Shown here: positions 57,559 through 61,879 of the stretch, in pieces
How positions within the stretch are numbered: the stretch's first letter is position 1
Layout of the letters: every line of letters begins with the position of its first letter
NCBI GenBank assembly: GCA_963767035.1
Contig: CAVYBW010000001.1
Coordinates: 2,310,547-2,374,546, forward strand
Direction: 5' to 3'
Origin: an uncultured Chloroflexia bacterium
GTDB taxonomy: Bacteria; Chloroflexota; Chloroflexia; Chloroflexales; Herpetosiphonaceae
Length of the DNA stretch: 64,000 bases
The notes under the pieces: model-generated
The model's input: the letters and a program-made list of their open reading frames with translations, nothing else
Database searches by the model: none
Told to the model about the DNA's origin: nothing
Translations under genes and position numbers: made by a program

Positions 57559-58453
57559 GTGGAGTTACCCATGCGCTATCTTGGCCTCAGTGGCCGGATT
57601 CTGAAACGCCCTGATTTACAAGCACCCAACCAGCAGCAACTAAGCCAATGGGTCTTGTATTTTTACGATGTGCTGCGCTATCTCGCACAACAGCAAATTC
57701 ATTGTTATCGCTTGCCTGCTTGGCCTTACGATCTACTCAATACATGGCCCGAAGCCGCCGATCAACTGAGGTTAATTGGCAATTTTGCCCAACAAGCCCA
57801 GATTCGCCTAACCTATCATGTGCCAAGCAATGTGCTGACTTAACAGCCATGATCAGCATATTCGGCAGTATGCACTGAACTATCTAACCAGTGCAGCAGC
57901 CTATTTAACCCAGCTTGGCAGTTATGATCCGGTGATTGTGGTGCATATTGGGGCGCAATATGGCGATCGAGCTTGGGCTTTGGCCCAAACCGTTGCAAGT
58001 TTGCAACAACTGGAGCCTGCGGTGTTCAACCTTTTAGCGCTTGAAGCCGATGGCCGAGTCTGGAGTTTGCTCGATGCCTTACACATTCATGCCCAAACCA
58101 GCATTCCAGTGATTTTCGATTGGCTGCATCATCAGCTTTACAACCCAGCCCAATTGAATAACGCCGATGGGCTGAATTATGCGTTGGCTACATGGCCAGC
58201 ACAACGTAAACCCAAAGTCCATTTTAGCTCACCGAGAACCGAAATTCGGCTTGGCCAGCGCCAGCAATTGCTGCTGCCAACATGGCATGAACATAGCGAT
58301 TTGGCGAATCCCTTTGAATTGATCAGCCTGTTACGCTTACCCTATCAACGTGATTATGATCTGATGTTAGAGGTTAAAGCAGGCGATTTAGCGCTTGAAC
58401 GGGCGAGAAATGATCTCCAACGCTTTGCGCCCGAGATTGTTGATTTGGAGTAG
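57559..58453 (+). pseudogene. uvdE: UV-damage endonuclease (UvdE) family, split by a +1 frameshift near 57836..57845
   Basis: Two ORFs in frames 1 and 2 together give a UvdE-length protein; VHIGAQYGD, KVHFSSP and LEVKAGDLAL motifs. Confidence 0.55.
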
Positions 58454-58756: not shown

Positions 58757-59119
58757 TTGCCACAGCCGATTATGGCTCAACGGTTTCGGCGGATTACCTT
58801 TATTAGCACCAATTGGCAGCAGCTCATTCAAGCCAAGCAGATTAACGATTTATGGTTGGGGGATAGTTTGCTTGAGCAATTGATCCAACAACTCAGGAAC
58901 GAGGGCATGAACGTGGCGCGGCGGCGTTTACACGATGGTAATCCGCCGCCACAAGCCACATTTGTACTCATCCCGCTGCTCAATCAGATTGAGCTATGCG
59001 TTGGTGATAGCTGTTTACGCTTCGATCATGAGCGATTTAATTTGGGATTTCGCAGGCTGTATGGCAAAAATTCGGGCCTTGCAACAGCGGAATTAAGTCA
59101 GGCCCAGTTATGTTATTGA
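58757..59119 (+). CDS. Hypothetical protein (possibly the C-terminal part of an interrupted gene)
   Basis: Same frame as the preceding ORF. Confidence 0.35.
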   Translation: MPQPIMAQRFRRITFISTNWQQLIQAKQINDLWLGDSLLEQLIQQLRNEGMNVARRRLHDGNPPPQATFVLIPLLNQIELCVGDSCLRFDHERFNLGFRRLYGKNSGLATAELSQAQLCY

Positions 59120-59658
59120 CCAGCGAGCAACAAACGAGCTAAGCGCTCACCGCCAACTAAATCGGCCAAATGGGCCAATTGGTTATCTTCATAGGCTTGA
59201 TTAAACAGCGCTACATCGAGAGCTAGCACTTTGCGAAACGCGATAATTGCTTTAGCAGGGTCGCTGCTGGTGGCGGCAATTTGCTCGCCACATGGCATAA
59301 TAATATCAAGCATGGCCAAAGGATAACGCACAGGCAAGCCGATGCGCACATGAATTTCACCAATTTTGAGCCGTTGTTGGGCATAAGACTCGTCGTAGTT
59401 ACCACGAAAGAGGTCGCTAAACCACGTACCAAGCATACCAGTTAATCGTTCAACCGAAACACCATCGAGATATTCGGCGGTAGCGGCGTGGCCAAGCAAG
59501 CGCTTGTAAAACGCATCGGTAAAATCCTTGGTTTGCGATTTAGCCTGTTCATGCAAGTTACCAAGTAATTGGGCTTCGCCAGCAGCGACATCCATCATTT
59601 TGACCAACTCGGTCAGAATCGCAGTTCCCTTAACACTCCAACTTTGACGATCTGCCAT
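59113..59658 (-). CDS. Stand-alone globin-sensor / protoglobin-like heme domain protein
   Basis: RLKIGEIHVRIGLPVRYPLAMLD (proximal His) and FYKRLLGH pattern typical of globin-coupled-sensor globin domains. Confidence 0.6.
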   Translation of the reverse strand: MADRQSWSVKGTAILTELVKMMDVAAGEAQLLGNLHEQAKSQTKDFTDAFYKRLLGHAATAEYLDGVSVERLTGMLGTWFSDLFRGNYDESYAQQRLKIGEIHVRIGLPVRYPLAMLDIIMPCGEQIAATSSDPAKAIIAFRKVLALDVALFNQAYEDNQLAHLADLVGGERLARLLLAGQ

Positions 59659-59673
59659 GAGCTACCTCCTTGA

Positions 59674-60051
59674 TTAAGCATTCATCAGTTCGGCGATTGC
59701 CCGACCTGTTTCACGAGCTTCAATCCGAATCATGCCCAGATTGGCGTGTTGGCGCAGAATGATTGCCAAAATCATCTGAGTAGCAACAGGCATAACCAAG
59801 AGATAGCCACTTTCGGCGTTAACAATCGCCTCATTGGCCTTACCAATTTTCAAATCGTTGACCACACGGGTCGTCACACCCATCATAGTGGCGGCAATTG
59901 CCCCCATACGGTCAGCATTAACATCAGTCGACATGCGTGAGCTAATCAAAATCCCATCTGAACTAATTAATGCAGCTCCATTAATATCATTACCATTATT
60001 ACTAACAAGTTGCTCTAAAATACTATTAATTTGTTCCGAACGACTAGCCAT
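59674..60051 (-). CDS. Roadblock/LC7 (MglB/CvnB-like) domain protein
   Basis: GAALISSDGILISS...LVMPV pattern typical of Roadblock/LC7. Confidence 0.7.
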   Translation of the reverse strand: MASRSEQINSILEQLVSNNGNDINGAALISSDGILISSRMSTDVNADRMGAIAATMMGVTTRVVNDLKIGKANEAIVNAESGYLLVMPVATQMILAIILRQHANLGMIRIEARETGRAIAELMNA

Positions 60052-60619
60052 GAGAGTGCTCCTTGTGAGTTACAGGCGAGGAGGATGAATCTTGGGCTAA
60101 AACGTCGATTCGATCAAGCAATGTACTGATCACATCGCTAACCGAAGGATAATCGGTTGCCGTGCAAGCGAGGATCGGAATATCGTTTGGCAGGCCCAAG
60201 CGGCGGCGAATATACGCTGGAGGCAATGCCCCTGGTAAATCTTGTTTGGTGGCGGCAACCACGAATGGCACGGGGGTTAATTCTGCAAAGCGTTCTAATA
60301 CGACAATTGTTTCGTTAAAGTGGGCTGGCCGACAGCTATCGACTAAAACAATATAGCCCAAACAACCTTCAGCTAAAATTCCCCACATAAAATCAAACCG
60401 TTCTTGGCCTGGAGTACCAAATAAGAGCAGACGTTGTTCGGCATCAATCGTCAACGTGCCGAAATCCAAACCAACGGTAGTATGGTGTTTAAGTTCTTTC
60501 TCTTCAGCATGGGTCACGGGAACATCAGTATCAACGACATCAATTTCGCTGACGGTGCGAATAAATTGTGATTTTCCTGCCGCGTATGCTCCCGTGATTA
60601 CGATTTTATAATTGACCAT
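60044..60619 (-). CDS. Small Ras-like GTPase (MglA/CvnD-like)
   Basis: P-loop GAYAAGKS, G3 GTPGQERF, G4 TKQD; 8-nt overlap with the Roadblock gene. Confidence 0.75.
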   Translation of the reverse strand: MVNYKIVITGAYAAGKSQFIRTVSEIDVVDTDVPVTHAEEKELKHHTTVGLDFGTLTIDAEQRLLLFGTPGQERFDFMWGILAEGCLGYIVLVDSCRPAHFNETIVVLERFAELTPVPFVVAATKQDLPGALPPAYIRRRLGLPNDIPILACTATDYPSVSDVISTLLDRIDVLAQDSSSSPVTHKEHSHG

Positions 60620-60627
60620 TGTTACTC

Positions 60628-61326
60628 CTAGGCACTGGCACTTGTGCGACGCAACCGCGCTTTGATAGCTTGAACCAACCCCCGCACTCGATTTTCGACC
60701 ATATGCTCGGAGTTAGGAGCCATCAAGACTGGGCTAAGCGAACGCTGAGAAACAACAATCTCGCTACACACCTCCACCAAGTTCAAGGCGATCAAACGAT
60801 GTAAAACCTTAAGCGTTTGATCGTAATTCCAACCAGTAGCTTCAACCAGTTCGGCTACACTTAATTCGTGGACTAATTGGCTCAAAATGCGCCAATCTTC
60901 GAGGGTTAGGGTGATGTCGCTGGCTTGACGCAACATTGGAACTAAGCGCAAGCGCGAGGTTGGTTGAAGTTTGGTCGTGCCCGCCAAACGCTGTGGTTGA
61001 TCGCGTCGGCGCAGGCCTTCGATAATCAACCAATCGATCGATCGCTGAATTTGCACGCTTACCGTTTCTTGTGGGTTGGGTGGCAAGAAGACAAATTGGG
61101 CATCATCCCAAGCCAGCATATCAAACACTGCTTGTTCACCACACGCAACCCGGTCGTGCGTCAGCTGGGTAACCACCCCTGCATTGATGATCGCACCATC
61201 AAAGAACCACAACATCGCCTTGAACGGAGCATTAGCAATCAGTAGACGACCAGTTTTGCGCCCATGATGAAATACATGCATCAAGTCAATTAATGGCATA
61301 TCAGCAAAATTACCTTCGAGAGCCAT
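60628..61326 (-). CDS. DUF4388 (PATAN-like) domain protein with a C-terminal DUF742-like HTH
   Basis: AAGGAG RBS; N-terminal LEGNFADMPLIDLMHVFHHGRKTGRLLI; C-terminal LSVAELVEATGWNYDQTLKVLHRLIALNLVEV. Confidence 0.65.
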   Translation of the reverse strand: MALEGNFADMPLIDLMHVFHHGRKTGRLLIANAPFKAMLWFFDGAIINAGVVTQLTHDRVACGEQAVFDMLAWDDAQFVFLPPNPQETVSVQIQRSIDWLIIEGLRRRDQPQRLAGTTKLQPTSRLRLVPMLRQASDITLTLEDWRILSQLVHELSVAELVEATGWNYDQTLKVLHRLIALNLVEVCSEIVVSQRSLSPVLMAPNSEHMVENRVRGLVQAIKARLRRTSASA

Positions 61327-61718
61327 AGCCGTCTCCTTCGTATGCAGTACAACCAGTCGATGTTGTCTAGGTTTTGTCCATATTATGTATAAAAATAATA
61401 CGTATCTGGAACAAATATATTTTCTAGTTGGCTTAATTGTTTGCATCGACGTTAGAAAAAATGACAACTCTATTATGGTCGCAACTGGATGTATCCGTCT
61501 ATGATGTGTCAATACTCTTTATGGCTATGCAGGGGTAAGGTAAGGATTGGGCTAGAAGTACTAGAAGACGTTTCCATGGAGTTGAATGAAAGTGGTATGT
61601 GGCGCTGTAATATAACCACGCCTGAGAGGGGTTTGTCAAGATGGGATACAATAGCCATAGGGTTTATCTGTTCTCCGTTCAATTCAGGAGCAGCATGCTT
61701 CGCCACGCTTCAACCCCT

Positions 61719-61768
61719 CCCCTAGAGGGAAACGGCGGGGGTTTTATCCCCTTGCACTCCCCTCTAGG
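61719..61768 (+). promoter_or_regulatory. Nested stem-loops in the upp 5' leader
   Basis: CCCCTAGAGGG ... GGGGGTTTTATCCCCC ... CCCTCTAGG inverted repeats. Confidence 0.25.
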
Positions 61769-61879
61769 ATTATTGGTGGCAGCCAAACGGATTGGCGAGG
61801 CATCAGAAATTGTGGTTTTCGCGAGAGCCAATAAACTTTACAATAGCCACGATCTGCGGTTTTTTAGTATGAGGTTGTT

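Follow-up and report, generated by a model that had tools for sequence, protein, structure and literature searches.

What does a stand-alone globin do in an operon with a Ras-like GTPase and a Roadblock protein? The question is raised by a locus in the 64,000-nucleotide stretch of DNA analysed here (the window), which comes from a Herpetosiphon genome (Herpetosiphonaceae), in which a tightly packed minus-strand operon of four genes (59113-61326) encodes, in the order PATAN -> GTPase -> Roadblock -> globin, the components of a putative signalling switch. To our knowledge, no partners or outputs have been assigned to the stand-alone sensor globins (SSDgbs), a recognised class, and no input or function is known for the widespread Group-5 MglA-type GTPases that have Roadblock and PATAN partners. 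The conserved operon and the domain fusions described below join these orphan globins with Group-5 MglA GTPases, and both questions become experimentally approachable. We consider it fairly probable that the operon constitutes a "split" globin-coupled signalling module, in which the globin would serve as the gas or redox input to the Roadblock/GTPase switch.

Organization of the operon

The locus comprises the following features, all on the minus strand.

60628..61326, minus strand: PATAN plus winged-helix protein, 232 residues counted from the ATG
60044..60619, minus strand: small Ras-like GTPase of the MglA family, Group-5 type, 191 residues
59674..60051, minus strand: Roadblock/LC7 (MglB/CvnB-like) protein, 125 residues, overlapping the GTPase stop by 8 nt
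59113..59658, minus strand: sensor-family single-domain globin (SSDgb), 181 residues
61327..61656, minus strand: conserved non-coding region 5' of the operon, from a six-genome Herpetosiphon comparison
59066..59105, minus strand: possible terminator, a GGGCC...GGCCC hairpin followed by a T-run, read from the sequence

The four packed minus-strand genes that a sequence-only reading of this DNA had described were all found as ORFs at the positions it gave. Its spacing was right for the overlap of 8 nt between the GTPase and Roadblock genes but off by one for each of the two gaps, which measure 8 nt (PATAN-GTPase) and 15 nt (Roadblock-globin) instead of 9 and 16. All four genes have a GGAG-type ribosome-binding site in front of them. 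In a comparison of six Herpetosiphon genomes, the first and second codon positions of the operon genes are 90-97% invariant, as compared with 40-56% for the third, and all four are real coding genes under purifying selection. The longer ORF of the PATAN gene, which opens with a TTG and extends to 61512, is an artefact, since the orthologs all start with MALEG.

The GTPase and its Roadblock partner

Pfam analysis of the GTPase reports hits with ATP_bind_1 (1.9e-12), Arf (1.9e-8), and Ras (2.5e-5), and the structure of T. thermophilus MglA (3t12) matches it at 3.3e-6. The G1 to G4 motifs are all present, in keeping with the earlier description of a small GTPase: G1 is GAYAAGKS (residues 10-17), which fits GxxxxGK[ST], G2 is TT (T47-T48), G3 is GTPGQ (residues 68-72), and G4 is TKQD (residues 124-127), which fits the canonical [NT]KxD. 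In the MglA classification, the Group 5 signature consists of a threonine where Group 1 has its arginine finger (TT), a GTPGQ G3, and an [NT]KxD G4; this last motif sets Groups 1, 4, and 5 apart from Groups 2 and 3 (PMC4316618). The operon GTPase agrees with the signatures given there for Groups 2-5 and for Group 5. Group 5 genes also lie within four genes of a Roadblock homolog, and here the two genes overlap by 8 nt. The ortholog of the operon in H. aurantiacus, Haur_0378, is listed as "PATAN>MglA>MglB", Group 5 (PMC4316618, Table S2). Its motifs and this catalogue entry for its ortholog place the GTPase in Group 5 of the MglA family.

The Roadblock/LC7 identity proposed for the third protein is confirmed by Pfam (Robl_LC7, 2.1e-12). 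Its nearest solved relatives are 7f8m, 9jue, and the conservon protein CvnB5 (3leq, 5e-8), while the M. xanthus MglB structures match at E~0.5 only, and the protein reaches 19.3 bits with the NCBIfam MglB model NF052242, whose cutoff is 200. The protein possesses an Asp32-Gly33 pair, typical of the MglB partners in Groups 2-5.

The PATAN and winged-helix protein

The first protein of the operon contains a DUF4388/PatA_N domain (2.1e-18, 66.9 bits against a cutoff of 25, residues 4-110) followed by a C-terminal winged helix, and, unlike proteins of the PatA type, it is devoid of a REC domain. No DNA-binding family reaches threshold for the winged helix: in the window protein a MarR_2 match stays sub-threshold (E=0.0017) and DUF742 returns none, and among 11 orthologs DUF742 matches three, weakly (best E=1.4e-4), beside MarR_2 and HTH_IclR matches. 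Hence, of the DUF4388/PATAN protein with a DUF742-like HTH that had been proposed, the first half is secure and the second finds faint echoes in these matches. When the whole chain was compared with the PDB, Foldseek gave no match below E=1e-3 and the sequence profile nothing significant. A first iterated PATAN profile drifted onto Roadblock via PATAN-Roadblock fusions, and separate PATAN and winged-helix profiles with Pfam spot checks were used instead.

The globin

Pfam analysis assigns the last protein to Protoglobin (PF11563, 3.3e-27, 95.8 bits against a cutoff of 25), and the closest solved structures by sequence are GsGCS (2w31, 5e-14) and AfGcHK (5ohe, 4e-13). His103 (F8) is invariant and aligns with the proximal-histidine segment of GsGCS, AfGcHK, and HemAT, and the IGxxHVxIG motif around it lines up with the segment that ligates heme in four heme-bound structures. 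Tyr51 (B10) aligns with the B10 tyrosine of the same three proteins and is conserved at 90% or more in both globin clades (see below). These residues and the Pfam hit uphold the protoglobin-like heme domain noted in the sequence-only reading, and the structure prediction suggested there as a check yields a sensor-globin fold: the AF2 model (pLDDT 83.9) returns HemAT, AfGcHK, GsGCS, and 8h17 as best Foldseek matches (TM 0.67-0.70, E 2e-6 to 3e-5). A true protoglobin of the M. acetivorans type was rejected because globin-coupled-sensor domains are much closer (about 1e-6) than the MaPgb structures (E of at least 2e-3), and no protoglobin occurs among the sequence matches of the globin to solved structures. 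The nearest multidomain relatives are globin-PAS-GAF hybrid histidine kinases, and a stressosome-type chain, 7o0i, matches the globin family at 1e-12. The chain consists of the domain (residues 15-159) and a tail of ~20 residues, and bears no transmitter domain; the tail is conserved (about residues 160-180, HLxxLVGGERLARLLL). The operon globin is thus a sensor-family single-domain globin with intact heme-ligating residues, and heme binding is predicted.

Linkage, fusions, and phyletic spread

Partners were counted in the same-strand cluster of the globin at 78 species-level loci that encode it. Roadblock is present at 64/78 loci, the GTPase at 60/78, and PATAN at 45/78 at least. Overall, the association of the globin with the module is kept in 66 of the 78 loci and across phyla, so that the neighbourhood survey proposed as a check found the arrangement conserved. 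There are 24 distinct arrangements with at least one partner gene, and the reciprocal search from the PATAN protein also reaches globin-containing clusters. The four-part set occurs in at least seven bacterial phyla, the module being found, by record title, in Chloroflexota, Deinococcota, Rhodothermales, Pseudomonadota, Verrucomicrobiota, Acidobacteriota, and cyanobacterial MAGs. A divergent cyanobacterial clade of globins (Tlr1989/8h17), ~23% identical, is accompanied by these partners too, in Thermosynechococcus, Calothrix, and Coleofasciculus. Domain fusions join REC, PATAN, and globin (L056), PATAN and GTPase (L015), and PATAN and Roadblock (L065). On this comparative evidence, the four-gene arrangement recurs far beyond chance, and globin adjacency in 66/78 loci despite the shuffling of gene order, together with the fusions, rules out a chance neighbour. 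The shuffled gene orders, the linkage in the divergent clade, and the fusions make a functional coupling of the globin with the GTPase, Roadblock, and PATAN proteins very likely.

Judged by sequence divergence, the genes of the module are passed on together, with correlated pairwise identities for Roadblock and GTPase (r=0.93), globin and Roadblock (0.70), and globin and GTPase (0.67), and the Pseudomonas copies have one common nearest neighbour (L082) for globin, Roadblock, and GTPase. The mean cross-phylum identity is highest for the globin (58%), the other members reaching 44-47%. REC-PATAN proteins adjoin the Deinococcota modules (L044, L056, L057). Genes for CheW and MCP lie near the module at a single locus (L089), receiver-domain genes being commoner. 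The globin is found without the core at 12 of the 78 loci; at seven or more of these it is an additional copy, the assembly containing the module as well. There are also paralogous globins, single or in tandem, that lack the module, and for these "orphans" no conserved partner was found, their neighbours being mostly housekeeping genes, one kinase, and one V4R gene. The PATAN-MglA(-MglB) core, for its part, is widespread with no recorded globin (PMC4316618).

Comparison with known systems

The PATAN-MglA-MglB cassettes of Group 5 share with the operon the three core genes and the GTPase signature (TT, GTPGQ, [NT]KxD). The word "globin" does not occur in the text or the supplements of the 2014 work that catalogued PATAN>MglA>MglB (PMC4316618). 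The core is thus already catalogued for H. aurantiacus, as Haur_0378 (PMC4316618), and only the globin link is new.

The actinobacterial conservons CvnABCD follow a common logic, with a sensor, a Roadblock protein (CvnB), a small HTH-type protein (CvnC), and a GTPase (CvnD) in one operon, and the Roadblock protein studied here is nearer to conservon CvnB5 than to MglB. However, the conservon sensor is the membrane histidine-kinase-like CvnA, whereas the operon has a soluble globin, a putative heme sensor, and no kinase among its four genes; CvnC is a DUF742 protein in place of PATAN plus winged helix; CvnD carries NxFD G4 and DAR G5 motifs, as compared with TKQD at G4 here; and the globin-linked module occurs in other taxa. 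An actinobacterial conservon was rejected on the missing CvnA kinase, TKQD instead of NxFD, and the lack of a DUF742 match for the window protein. The MglA/MglB(/RomRX) polarity switch of Myxococcus and Thermus (Group 1) also places a Ras-like GTPase under the control of a Roadblock dimer, and in Chloroflexi PATAN genes are often close by. Its MglA has the arginine finger and TVPGQ where the operon GTPase has TT and GTPGQ, its partner is an MglB equivalog, which the operon Roadblock is not (NF052242, 19.3 bits vs 200), and the polarity input in Myxococcus is the Frz chemosensory system, not a globin. A Group-1 MglAB module was rejected on TT, GTPGQ, and the MglB model score (19 bits against the cutoff of 200).

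On the side of the globins, the globin-coupled sensors (HemAT, AfGcHK, GsGCS, DosC/BpeGReg) are the nearest relatives, with the same sensor-globin fold, His F8, and Tyr B10. Their transmitter (MCP, kinase, or diguanylate cyclase) is on the same chain, whereas the operon globin is a separate protein whose presumed transmitter is the GTPase module. A counterpart in layout is Tlr1989 from Thermosynechococcus elongatus (PDB 8h17). This sensor globin of ~184 residues also stands alone and has a C-terminal tail, and Roadblock, GTPase, and PATAN genes come after its own in a cluster of the same kind; its identity to the window globin is ~23%, and its tail motif differs. Mathur et al. 2023 reportedly treat Tlr1989 as a hemoglobin domain, under a title concerning stability and structure. 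Makarova et al. 2006 is said to be a source on PATAN-MglA-MglB cassettes, alongside Wuichet & Sogaard-Andersen 2014.

In HGbRL of Methylacidiphilum infernorum, a globin is fused to Roadblock/LC7 and is proposed to relay ligand binding to it (PMC4476040). HGbRL is a single polypeptide with a globin of the flavohemoglobin-like family, as opposed to separate proteins with a globin of the sensor family in the operon; it is restricted to one genus, with mglA/mglB-like genes elsewhere in that genome (PMC4476040). It is the only case found in the literature in which a globin or protoglobin is combined with Roadblock, MglA, MglB, PATAN, or DUF4388, and no description was found there of a GTPase module as the output of a globin sensor, the globin link being the new part. 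The view that a conservon-like module with a globin input had not been described therefore holds for the globin link, though not for the catalogued core, and HGbRL and Tlr1989 are partial precedents.

Proposed mechanism and alternatives

As a split globin-coupled module, the operon would work as follows. The globin would bind heme b via His103, in a pocket that has, as in AfGcHK, a tyrosine at B10 (Tyr51) and a leucine at E11 (Leu76). The bound ligand (O2, NO, or CO) or the redox state of the iron (Fe(II)/Fe(III)) would alter the globin dimer and the C-terminal helix. Protein-protein contact would carry this change to the Roadblock dimer, the PATAN protein, or both, and an altered GAP/GEF-type control would then set the GTP/GDP state of the GTPase. 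The PATAN and winged-helix protein may act as a scaffold or effector, either by binding DNA, possibly the conserved region 5' of its own operon, or by docking onto the motility machinery, as do cyanobacterial PATAN domains, which are output domains that bind PilB1/PilC (bioRxiv 10.1101/2021.06.11.447907). The logic would parallel that of a conservon, with a cytoplasmic heme sensor replacing the membrane kinase. The fusions point to PATAN as much as to Roadblock for the direct partner of the globin.

An input role of the globin in the GTPase cycle is the best-supported explanation of gene linkage, fusions, and family knowledge, and the proposal of a gas or redox GTPase switch with a globin in the sensor slot stands on that footing. 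A sensor role is further suggested by the hybrid-kinase relatives, by a core that is common without the globin, and by a globin that is rare without the core. More broadly, it is conceivable, at somewhat less than an even chance, that two divergent clades of sensor single-domain globins are dedicated gas or redox inputs of cross-phylum switches made of Group-5 MglA, Roadblock, and PATAN/winged-helix proteins, which would steer surface motility (aerotaxis-like, in gliding filaments) or transcription. This would amount to a G-protein pathway in prokaryotes with a heme sensor of diatomic gases as its gate. If the input role is confirmed, a small GTPase joins the outputs of heme gas sensors (kinase, MCP, diguanylate cyclase, anti-sigma partner), and a soluble gas or redox sensor joins the inputs of bacterial Ras-like switches. 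Suitable organisms with the module are Pseudomonas nitroreducens, P. citronellolis, and Thermosynechococcus, whose globin structure is solved (8h17).

Gene linkage would look the same whether the globin is the input or the output. The globin might instead be the client of the switch, which, driven by another signal, would control the location or activity of a chemically active globin, with O2 buffering, NO dioxygenation, and peroxidase-like or nitrite-reductase activity as candidate chemistries. Linkage and fusions carry no direction and suit this reading too; the REC-PATAN proteins beside the Deinococcota modules raise the possibility that the real input there is phosphorylation, and the higher conservation of the globin would suit an end function that is enzyme-like or tightly constrained. 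For the related protoglobin, enzymatic activities are reported (PMC4020757). However, the protein falls in the sensor branch, its relatives being HemAT, AfGcHK, GsGCS, and hybrid kinases, not protoglobin or flavohemoglobin, and in the REC-PATAN-globin fusion the globin lies C-terminal to the signalling domains, although this does not settle direction. We regard a client globin as unlikely.

Still less probable is a heme-free globin fold serving as scaffold or adaptor for a signal other than gas or redox, like the N-terminal domain of B. subtilis RsbR. Such non-heme sensor-globin domains exist (RsbR, as cited in PMC4476040), the match to stressosome-type 7o0i is in line with one, and the invariant C-terminal tail suggests that a protein-binding role is important, but the invariant His103, the Tyr51 kept in both clades, and the alignment of IGxxHVxIG with heme-ligating segments argue for heme, and Tlr1989 is deposited as a hemoglobin domain (8h17). 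Finally, a canonical MglA/MglB polarity module or conservon with an unrelated globin gene next door would account for the Roadblock and GTPase core common to both systems and for the resemblance to CvnB5, but it is hardly credible and, as stated, refuted by the absence of Group-1 and conservon hallmarks (TT, GTPGQ, TKQD, no CvnA kinase) and by a globin adjacency that persists through order shuffling and fusions.

Flanking DNA

The operon is flanked by upp and an unannotated ORF. Other neighbours within the window encode an epimerase, UvdE, and a HAD hydrolase; these genes give no hint of the process regulated, and no second copy of the module was found in the 64,000 nt. The region 5' of the operon (61327..61656) has 76% invariant columns in the six Herpetosiphon genomes, against 58% downstream of the operon and 40-56% at third codon positions, and it contains an imperfect inverted repeat, TTGTTCCA-N26-TGGACAA, with conserved arms and a variable spacer. 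This region probably comprises the promoter and operator. A structured RNA or riboswitch in these 330 nt was rejected, with no Rfam match at gathering score and a fold z of 0.03; the Rfam search of the region returned chance-level matches only, and these lie inside an inserted element. A consensus scan for promoters and terminators gave counts no higher than in shuffled sequence and is thus uninformative. It missed the hairpin at 59066..59105 because the loop is ~22 nt long. Located just 3' of the globin stop, this hairpin is tentatively proposed as the terminator of the operon, and it lies inside the convergent, unannotated ORF 58757-59119.

Operon layout and coding status

The operon at 59113-61326 comprises four minus-strand genes, each called from its ORF and Pfam match:

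60628-61326, minus strand: PATAN and winged-helix protein, 232 aa
60044-60619, minus strand: small GTPase, 191 aa
59674-60051, minus strand: Roadblock/LC7 protein, 125 aa
59113-59658, minus strand: globin, 181 aa

The sequence-only reading correctly described these genes as tightly packed with one 8-nt overlap, but the gaps it gave as 9 and 16 nt are 8 and 15 nt, the junctions in the DNA being an 8-nt gap, the 8-nt overlap and a 15-nt gap. A GGAG-type ribosome-binding site precedes every one of the four start codons. The longer, TTG-initiated PATAN ORF reaching 61512 is not the true gene, since every ortholog begins at the MALEG methionine. Across six Herpetosiphon genomes, 90-97% of codon positions 1 and 2 are invariant as compared with 40-56% of position 3, indicating that the four ORFs are genuine coding genes under purifying selection. 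For the globin, identity reaches 96% with the H. llansteffanensis protein and 91% with the H. aurantiacus one, and the window is assigned, by sequence identity, to a Herpetosiphon genome. Upp and an epimerase gene lie on one side; on the other are unannotated ORFs, part of a UvdE gene and a HAD hydrolase gene. All are unrelated to the operon, which stands alone among its window neighbours. A convergent 120-aa ORF devoid of Pfam match (58757-59119, plus strand) runs 7 nt into the globin gene across its stop codon and encloses a hairpin that might be the operon terminator. The UvdE gene looks split: the ORF at 57932-58453 (plus strand) aligns with the C-terminal half of the profile alone (positions 147-255 of 275), and the ORF just before it (57559-57843, plus strand) lies in a different frame and has no Pfam match. 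The region 57559-58453 could represent a gene that is degraded or frameshifted.

The 330 nt 5' of the operon (61327-61656, minus strand) display 76% invariant columns in the six genomes, exceeding the third codon positions (40-56%) and the downstream flank (58%). No RNA-structure or Rfam signal was returned for these 330 nt. They harbour an inverted repeat, TTGTTCCA-N26-TGGACAA, the arms of which are conserved and the spacer variable, and which may therefore be an operator. Between upp and this conserved region lies a ~181-nt insertion (61658-61838, region 61647-61849) specific to the window and absent from the five other Herpetosiphon genomes. Bordered on both sides by the 11-bp direct repeat TACAATAGCCA, it resembles a small element inserted with duplication of its target site; a GC-rich hairpin within it explains a weak chance Rfam match (E=0.065).

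The globin

Pfam analysis of the window globin reports a strong hit with Protoglobin (3.3e-27). Its closest solved relatives are the sensor domains of the globin-coupled sensors GsGCS (2w31), AfGcHK (5ohe) and HemAT (1or4), and the family profile also matches the stand-alone globin Tlr1989 (8h17; 1e-20), which typifies a second, divergent clade. The GEIH103VRIGL segment aligns to the proximal-histidine segment of the solved sensor globins and DAFY51 to their B10 tyrosine: in both clades H103 never varies and Y51 hardly does. The E11 position, from the GsGCS alignment, is Leu76; AfGcHK likewise carries a leucine at E11. The AlphaFold model (pLDDT 83.9) yields TM scores of 0.67-0.70 to HemAT, AfGcHK, GsGCS and 8h17, and a far weaker match to the M. 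acetivorans protoglobin. The earlier description as a protoglobin-like heme domain thus stands as regards the globin family, but a protoglobin in the strict sense is ruled out, the sensor domains being nearer; alignments and model together identify the protein as a sensor single-domain globin (SSDgb). Beyond the globin fold, a ~20-residue tail (HLxxLVGGERLARLLL) is almost invariant across phyla and makes a candidate site for partner binding. Only 8 clusters (50% identity) make up this compact clade at E<=1e-30; next in relatedness come hybrid histidine kinases with tandem globin, PAS and GAF domains.

The GTPase, Roadblock and PATAN proteins

The GTPase matches ATP_bind_1, Arf and Ras in Pfam, and T. 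thermophilus MglA at 3.3e-6. Motifs G1 to G4 are all present, as GAYAAGKS, T47-T48, GTPGQ and TKQD. A Thr replacing the arginine finger, together with GTPGQ, is the signature of MglA-family Groups 2-5 (PMC4316618), into which the GTPase therefore fits, and its canonical [NT]KxD G4 excludes Groups 2 and 3. Table S2 of that catalogue contains the entry 'MglA Group 5, Herpetosiphon aurantiacus, Haur_0378, PATAN>MglA>MglB, 191', which is the ortholog of the window operon.

The Roadblock protein (Robl_LC7, 2.1e-12) is nearer to the conservon protein CvnB5 (5e-8) than to M. xanthus MglB (E~0.5), and scores far under the NCBIfam MglB equivalog cutoff. It retains the Asp-Gly pair noted for the Roadblock partners of MglA Groups 2-5 (PMC4316618). 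Residues 4-110 of the PATAN protein match DUF4388/PatA_N (2.1e-18), and the predicted structure shows its C-terminal domain folded as a winged helix. The DUF4388 assignment of the sequence-only reading is thereby upheld and its HTH agrees with the winged helix of the model, whereas the likeness to DUF742, as to MarR_2 and HTH_IclR, stays below threshold.

Linkage of the four genes across bacteria

A census of one genome per GTDB species returned 78 loci carrying a window-type globin. Partners were detected with profiles built from the window proteins, PATAN and winged helix being profiled separately after a first profile drifted. The same-strand cluster of the globin includes a Roadblock gene at 64 of the 78 loci, a GTPase gene at 60 and a PATAN gene at at least 45; one or more partners are found at 66 and all three at 43, and further loci, e.g. 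in Pseudomonas and Trueperaceae, have weaker PATAN domains by Pfam. The arrangement is thus conserved in related genomes and across several phyla. Among the 12 globin loci devoid of partners, which share no conserved neighbours, at least 7 represent a second globin copy in an assembly where the module is present too. The reverse search from PATAN orthologs returns to clusters with globin. Gene order varies by lineage, and the Tlr1989-type globins, only ~23% identical to the window clade, have the same kinds of neighbours.

Gene order of the module by lineage

Herpetosiphon: PATAN>GTPase>Roadblock>globin
Most Chloroflexales loci (Chloroflexaceae, Oscillochloris, Roseiflexus): Roadblock>globin>PATAN>GTPase
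Kouleothrix and others: globin>Roadblock>PATAN>GTPase(>PATAN)
Deinococcota, Pseudomonas, one Acidobacteriota MAG: GTPase>Roadblock>globin
Rhodothermales: Roadblock>GTPase>globin
Caldilineae, Anaerolineales: variants bearing PATAN-Roadblock fusions
Thermosynechococcus (Tlr1989 clade): globin>Roadblock>GTPase>PATAN>hemerythrin
Calothrix (Tlr1989 clade): PATAN>GTPase>Roadblock>globin
Coleofasciculus (Tlr1989 clade): upstream Roadblock gene, then globin>Roadblock>GTPase and more Roadblock genes

Three domain fusions, located at loci of other genomes (L numbers), provide Rosetta-stone support for the association:

L056:6455-7945, Deinococcota MAG: REC-PATAN-globin, 496 aa
L015:1-1179, minus strand: PATAN-GTPase, 393 aa, the ORF extending past the locus start
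L065:6615-7355, Caldilinea, and also Anaerolineales loci: PATAN-Roadblock, 246 aa

At 58 loci, the pairwise identities of the Roadblock proteins track those of the GTPases (r=0.93), and each set correlates with that of the globin at ~0.7; in the Pseudomonas copies, globin, Roadblock and GTPase have a single common nearest neighbour, indicating that the genes are passed on together. Conservation is highest in the globin (mean identity 58%, minimum 46%, as compared with a minimum of 16% for Roadblock and GTPase).

Comparison with known systems and proposed working

The closest kind of system is the PATAN-MglA-MglB Group-5 cassette, of which the operon core is a catalogued example; the catalogue (PMC4316618) records no globin, and neither input nor function is known for the group. 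The GTPase/Roadblock/PATAN cassette is therefore known, and what is new is its strongly conserved, previously unrecorded heme-globin partner. The operon shares with conservons the logic of a sensor, a Roadblock protein, a small HTH protein and a GTPase, but it lacks CvnA and its G4 is TKQD instead of NxFD, which rejects membership; its DUF742 likeness is sub-threshold and equivocal. A Group-1 MglAB polarity module is rejected by T47-T48/GTPGQ and the missed MglB equivalog cutoff. Globin-coupled sensors differ in that the operon has its transmitter on separate polypeptides, and of another kind. Leaving aside the 2023 paper of Mathur et al. on Tlr1989, a literature search linking globin with Roadblock, MglA, MglB, PATAN or DUF4388 found only HGbRL, an independent globin-Roadblock fusion of Methylacidiphilum in which ligand binding is proposed to reach the Roadblock domain (PMC4476040). 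This agrees with the sequence-only reading, which was aware of no described conservon-like module with globin input; HGbRL is a partial precedent.

What is directly observed is the operon structure, the domain assignments, the preserved heme-ligating and nucleotide-binding residues, and a linkage that spans phyla and includes fusions; the four genes are very probably coupled functionally. The globin would bind heme, sense O2, NO, CO or redox state, and contact the Roadblock dimer, the PATAN protein or both to pass the signal on, which would shift the GTP/GDP state of the GTPase; the PATAN and winged-helix protein would serve as scaffold or effector. This specific model, with the globin as gas or redox input to the GTPase cycle, is somewhat favoured. 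An input rather than an output role is suggested by membership of the sensor branch, in which every characterised member is an input domain, by the PATAN-MglA(-MglB) core being common without recorded globin but the globin rare without the core, and by the relay proposed for HGbRL. The earlier observation is confirmed and its reading of a globin in the sensor slot of a GTPase switch supported in substance, with corrections.

In cyanobacterial regulators, PATAN domains bind PilB1 and PilC, proteins of the pilus motor, and suffice to reverse phototaxis (bioRxiv 10.1101/2021.06.11.447907); by analogy, and with a cheW-cheY-mcp cluster directly following the module in one genome, a motility-type output can be envisaged. 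DNA binding, possibly autoregulation, would accord with the winged helix and with the unusual conservation of the 330 nt upstream. With this finding, two little-understood classes of protein, SSDgbs and Group-5 MglA GTPases, acquire a role that is concrete and testable, and for study of the module there are tractable hosts and an already solved globin structure.

Variants and accessory genes at other loci

At L089:6456-8702 (GCA_034437415.1), the module has the window gene order, and cheW, a cheY-like receiver gene and an MCP gene come next on that strand; the other 88 loci examined have no CheW or MCP genes near the module. A receiver-domain ORF lies directly downstream of the globin at L044:6639-7580 (uncultured-bacterium MAG) and L057:6574-7755 (Chloroflexales MAG), hinting at a two-component input beside the globin; the L044 ORF also matched the drift-prone first PATAN profile and may be a REC-PATAN protein. 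Some modules are accompanied, internally or next to them, by accessory small-molecule-binding genes (L001:6177-6638; L061:4089-4754; L086:7512-7922): the Kouleothrix module encloses a V4R-domain gene, another such gene adjoins a stand-alone globin in Viridilinea, and a hemerythrin gene follows the Thermosynechococcus module. In Coleofasciculus (L088, 3939-10555), at least five Roadblock genes, surrounding the globin and one recognisable GTPase, alternate with ORFs of ~156-177 aa that have no recorded Pfam match and may be divergent GTPases. Lastly, tandem pairs of window-type globin without the GTPase module occur at L006, L007, L035 and L047; at L006 and L007 they adjoin divergently oriented CBS-domain and HATPase_c genes (Pfam), to which ORFs at L035 and L047 correspond in size and position.
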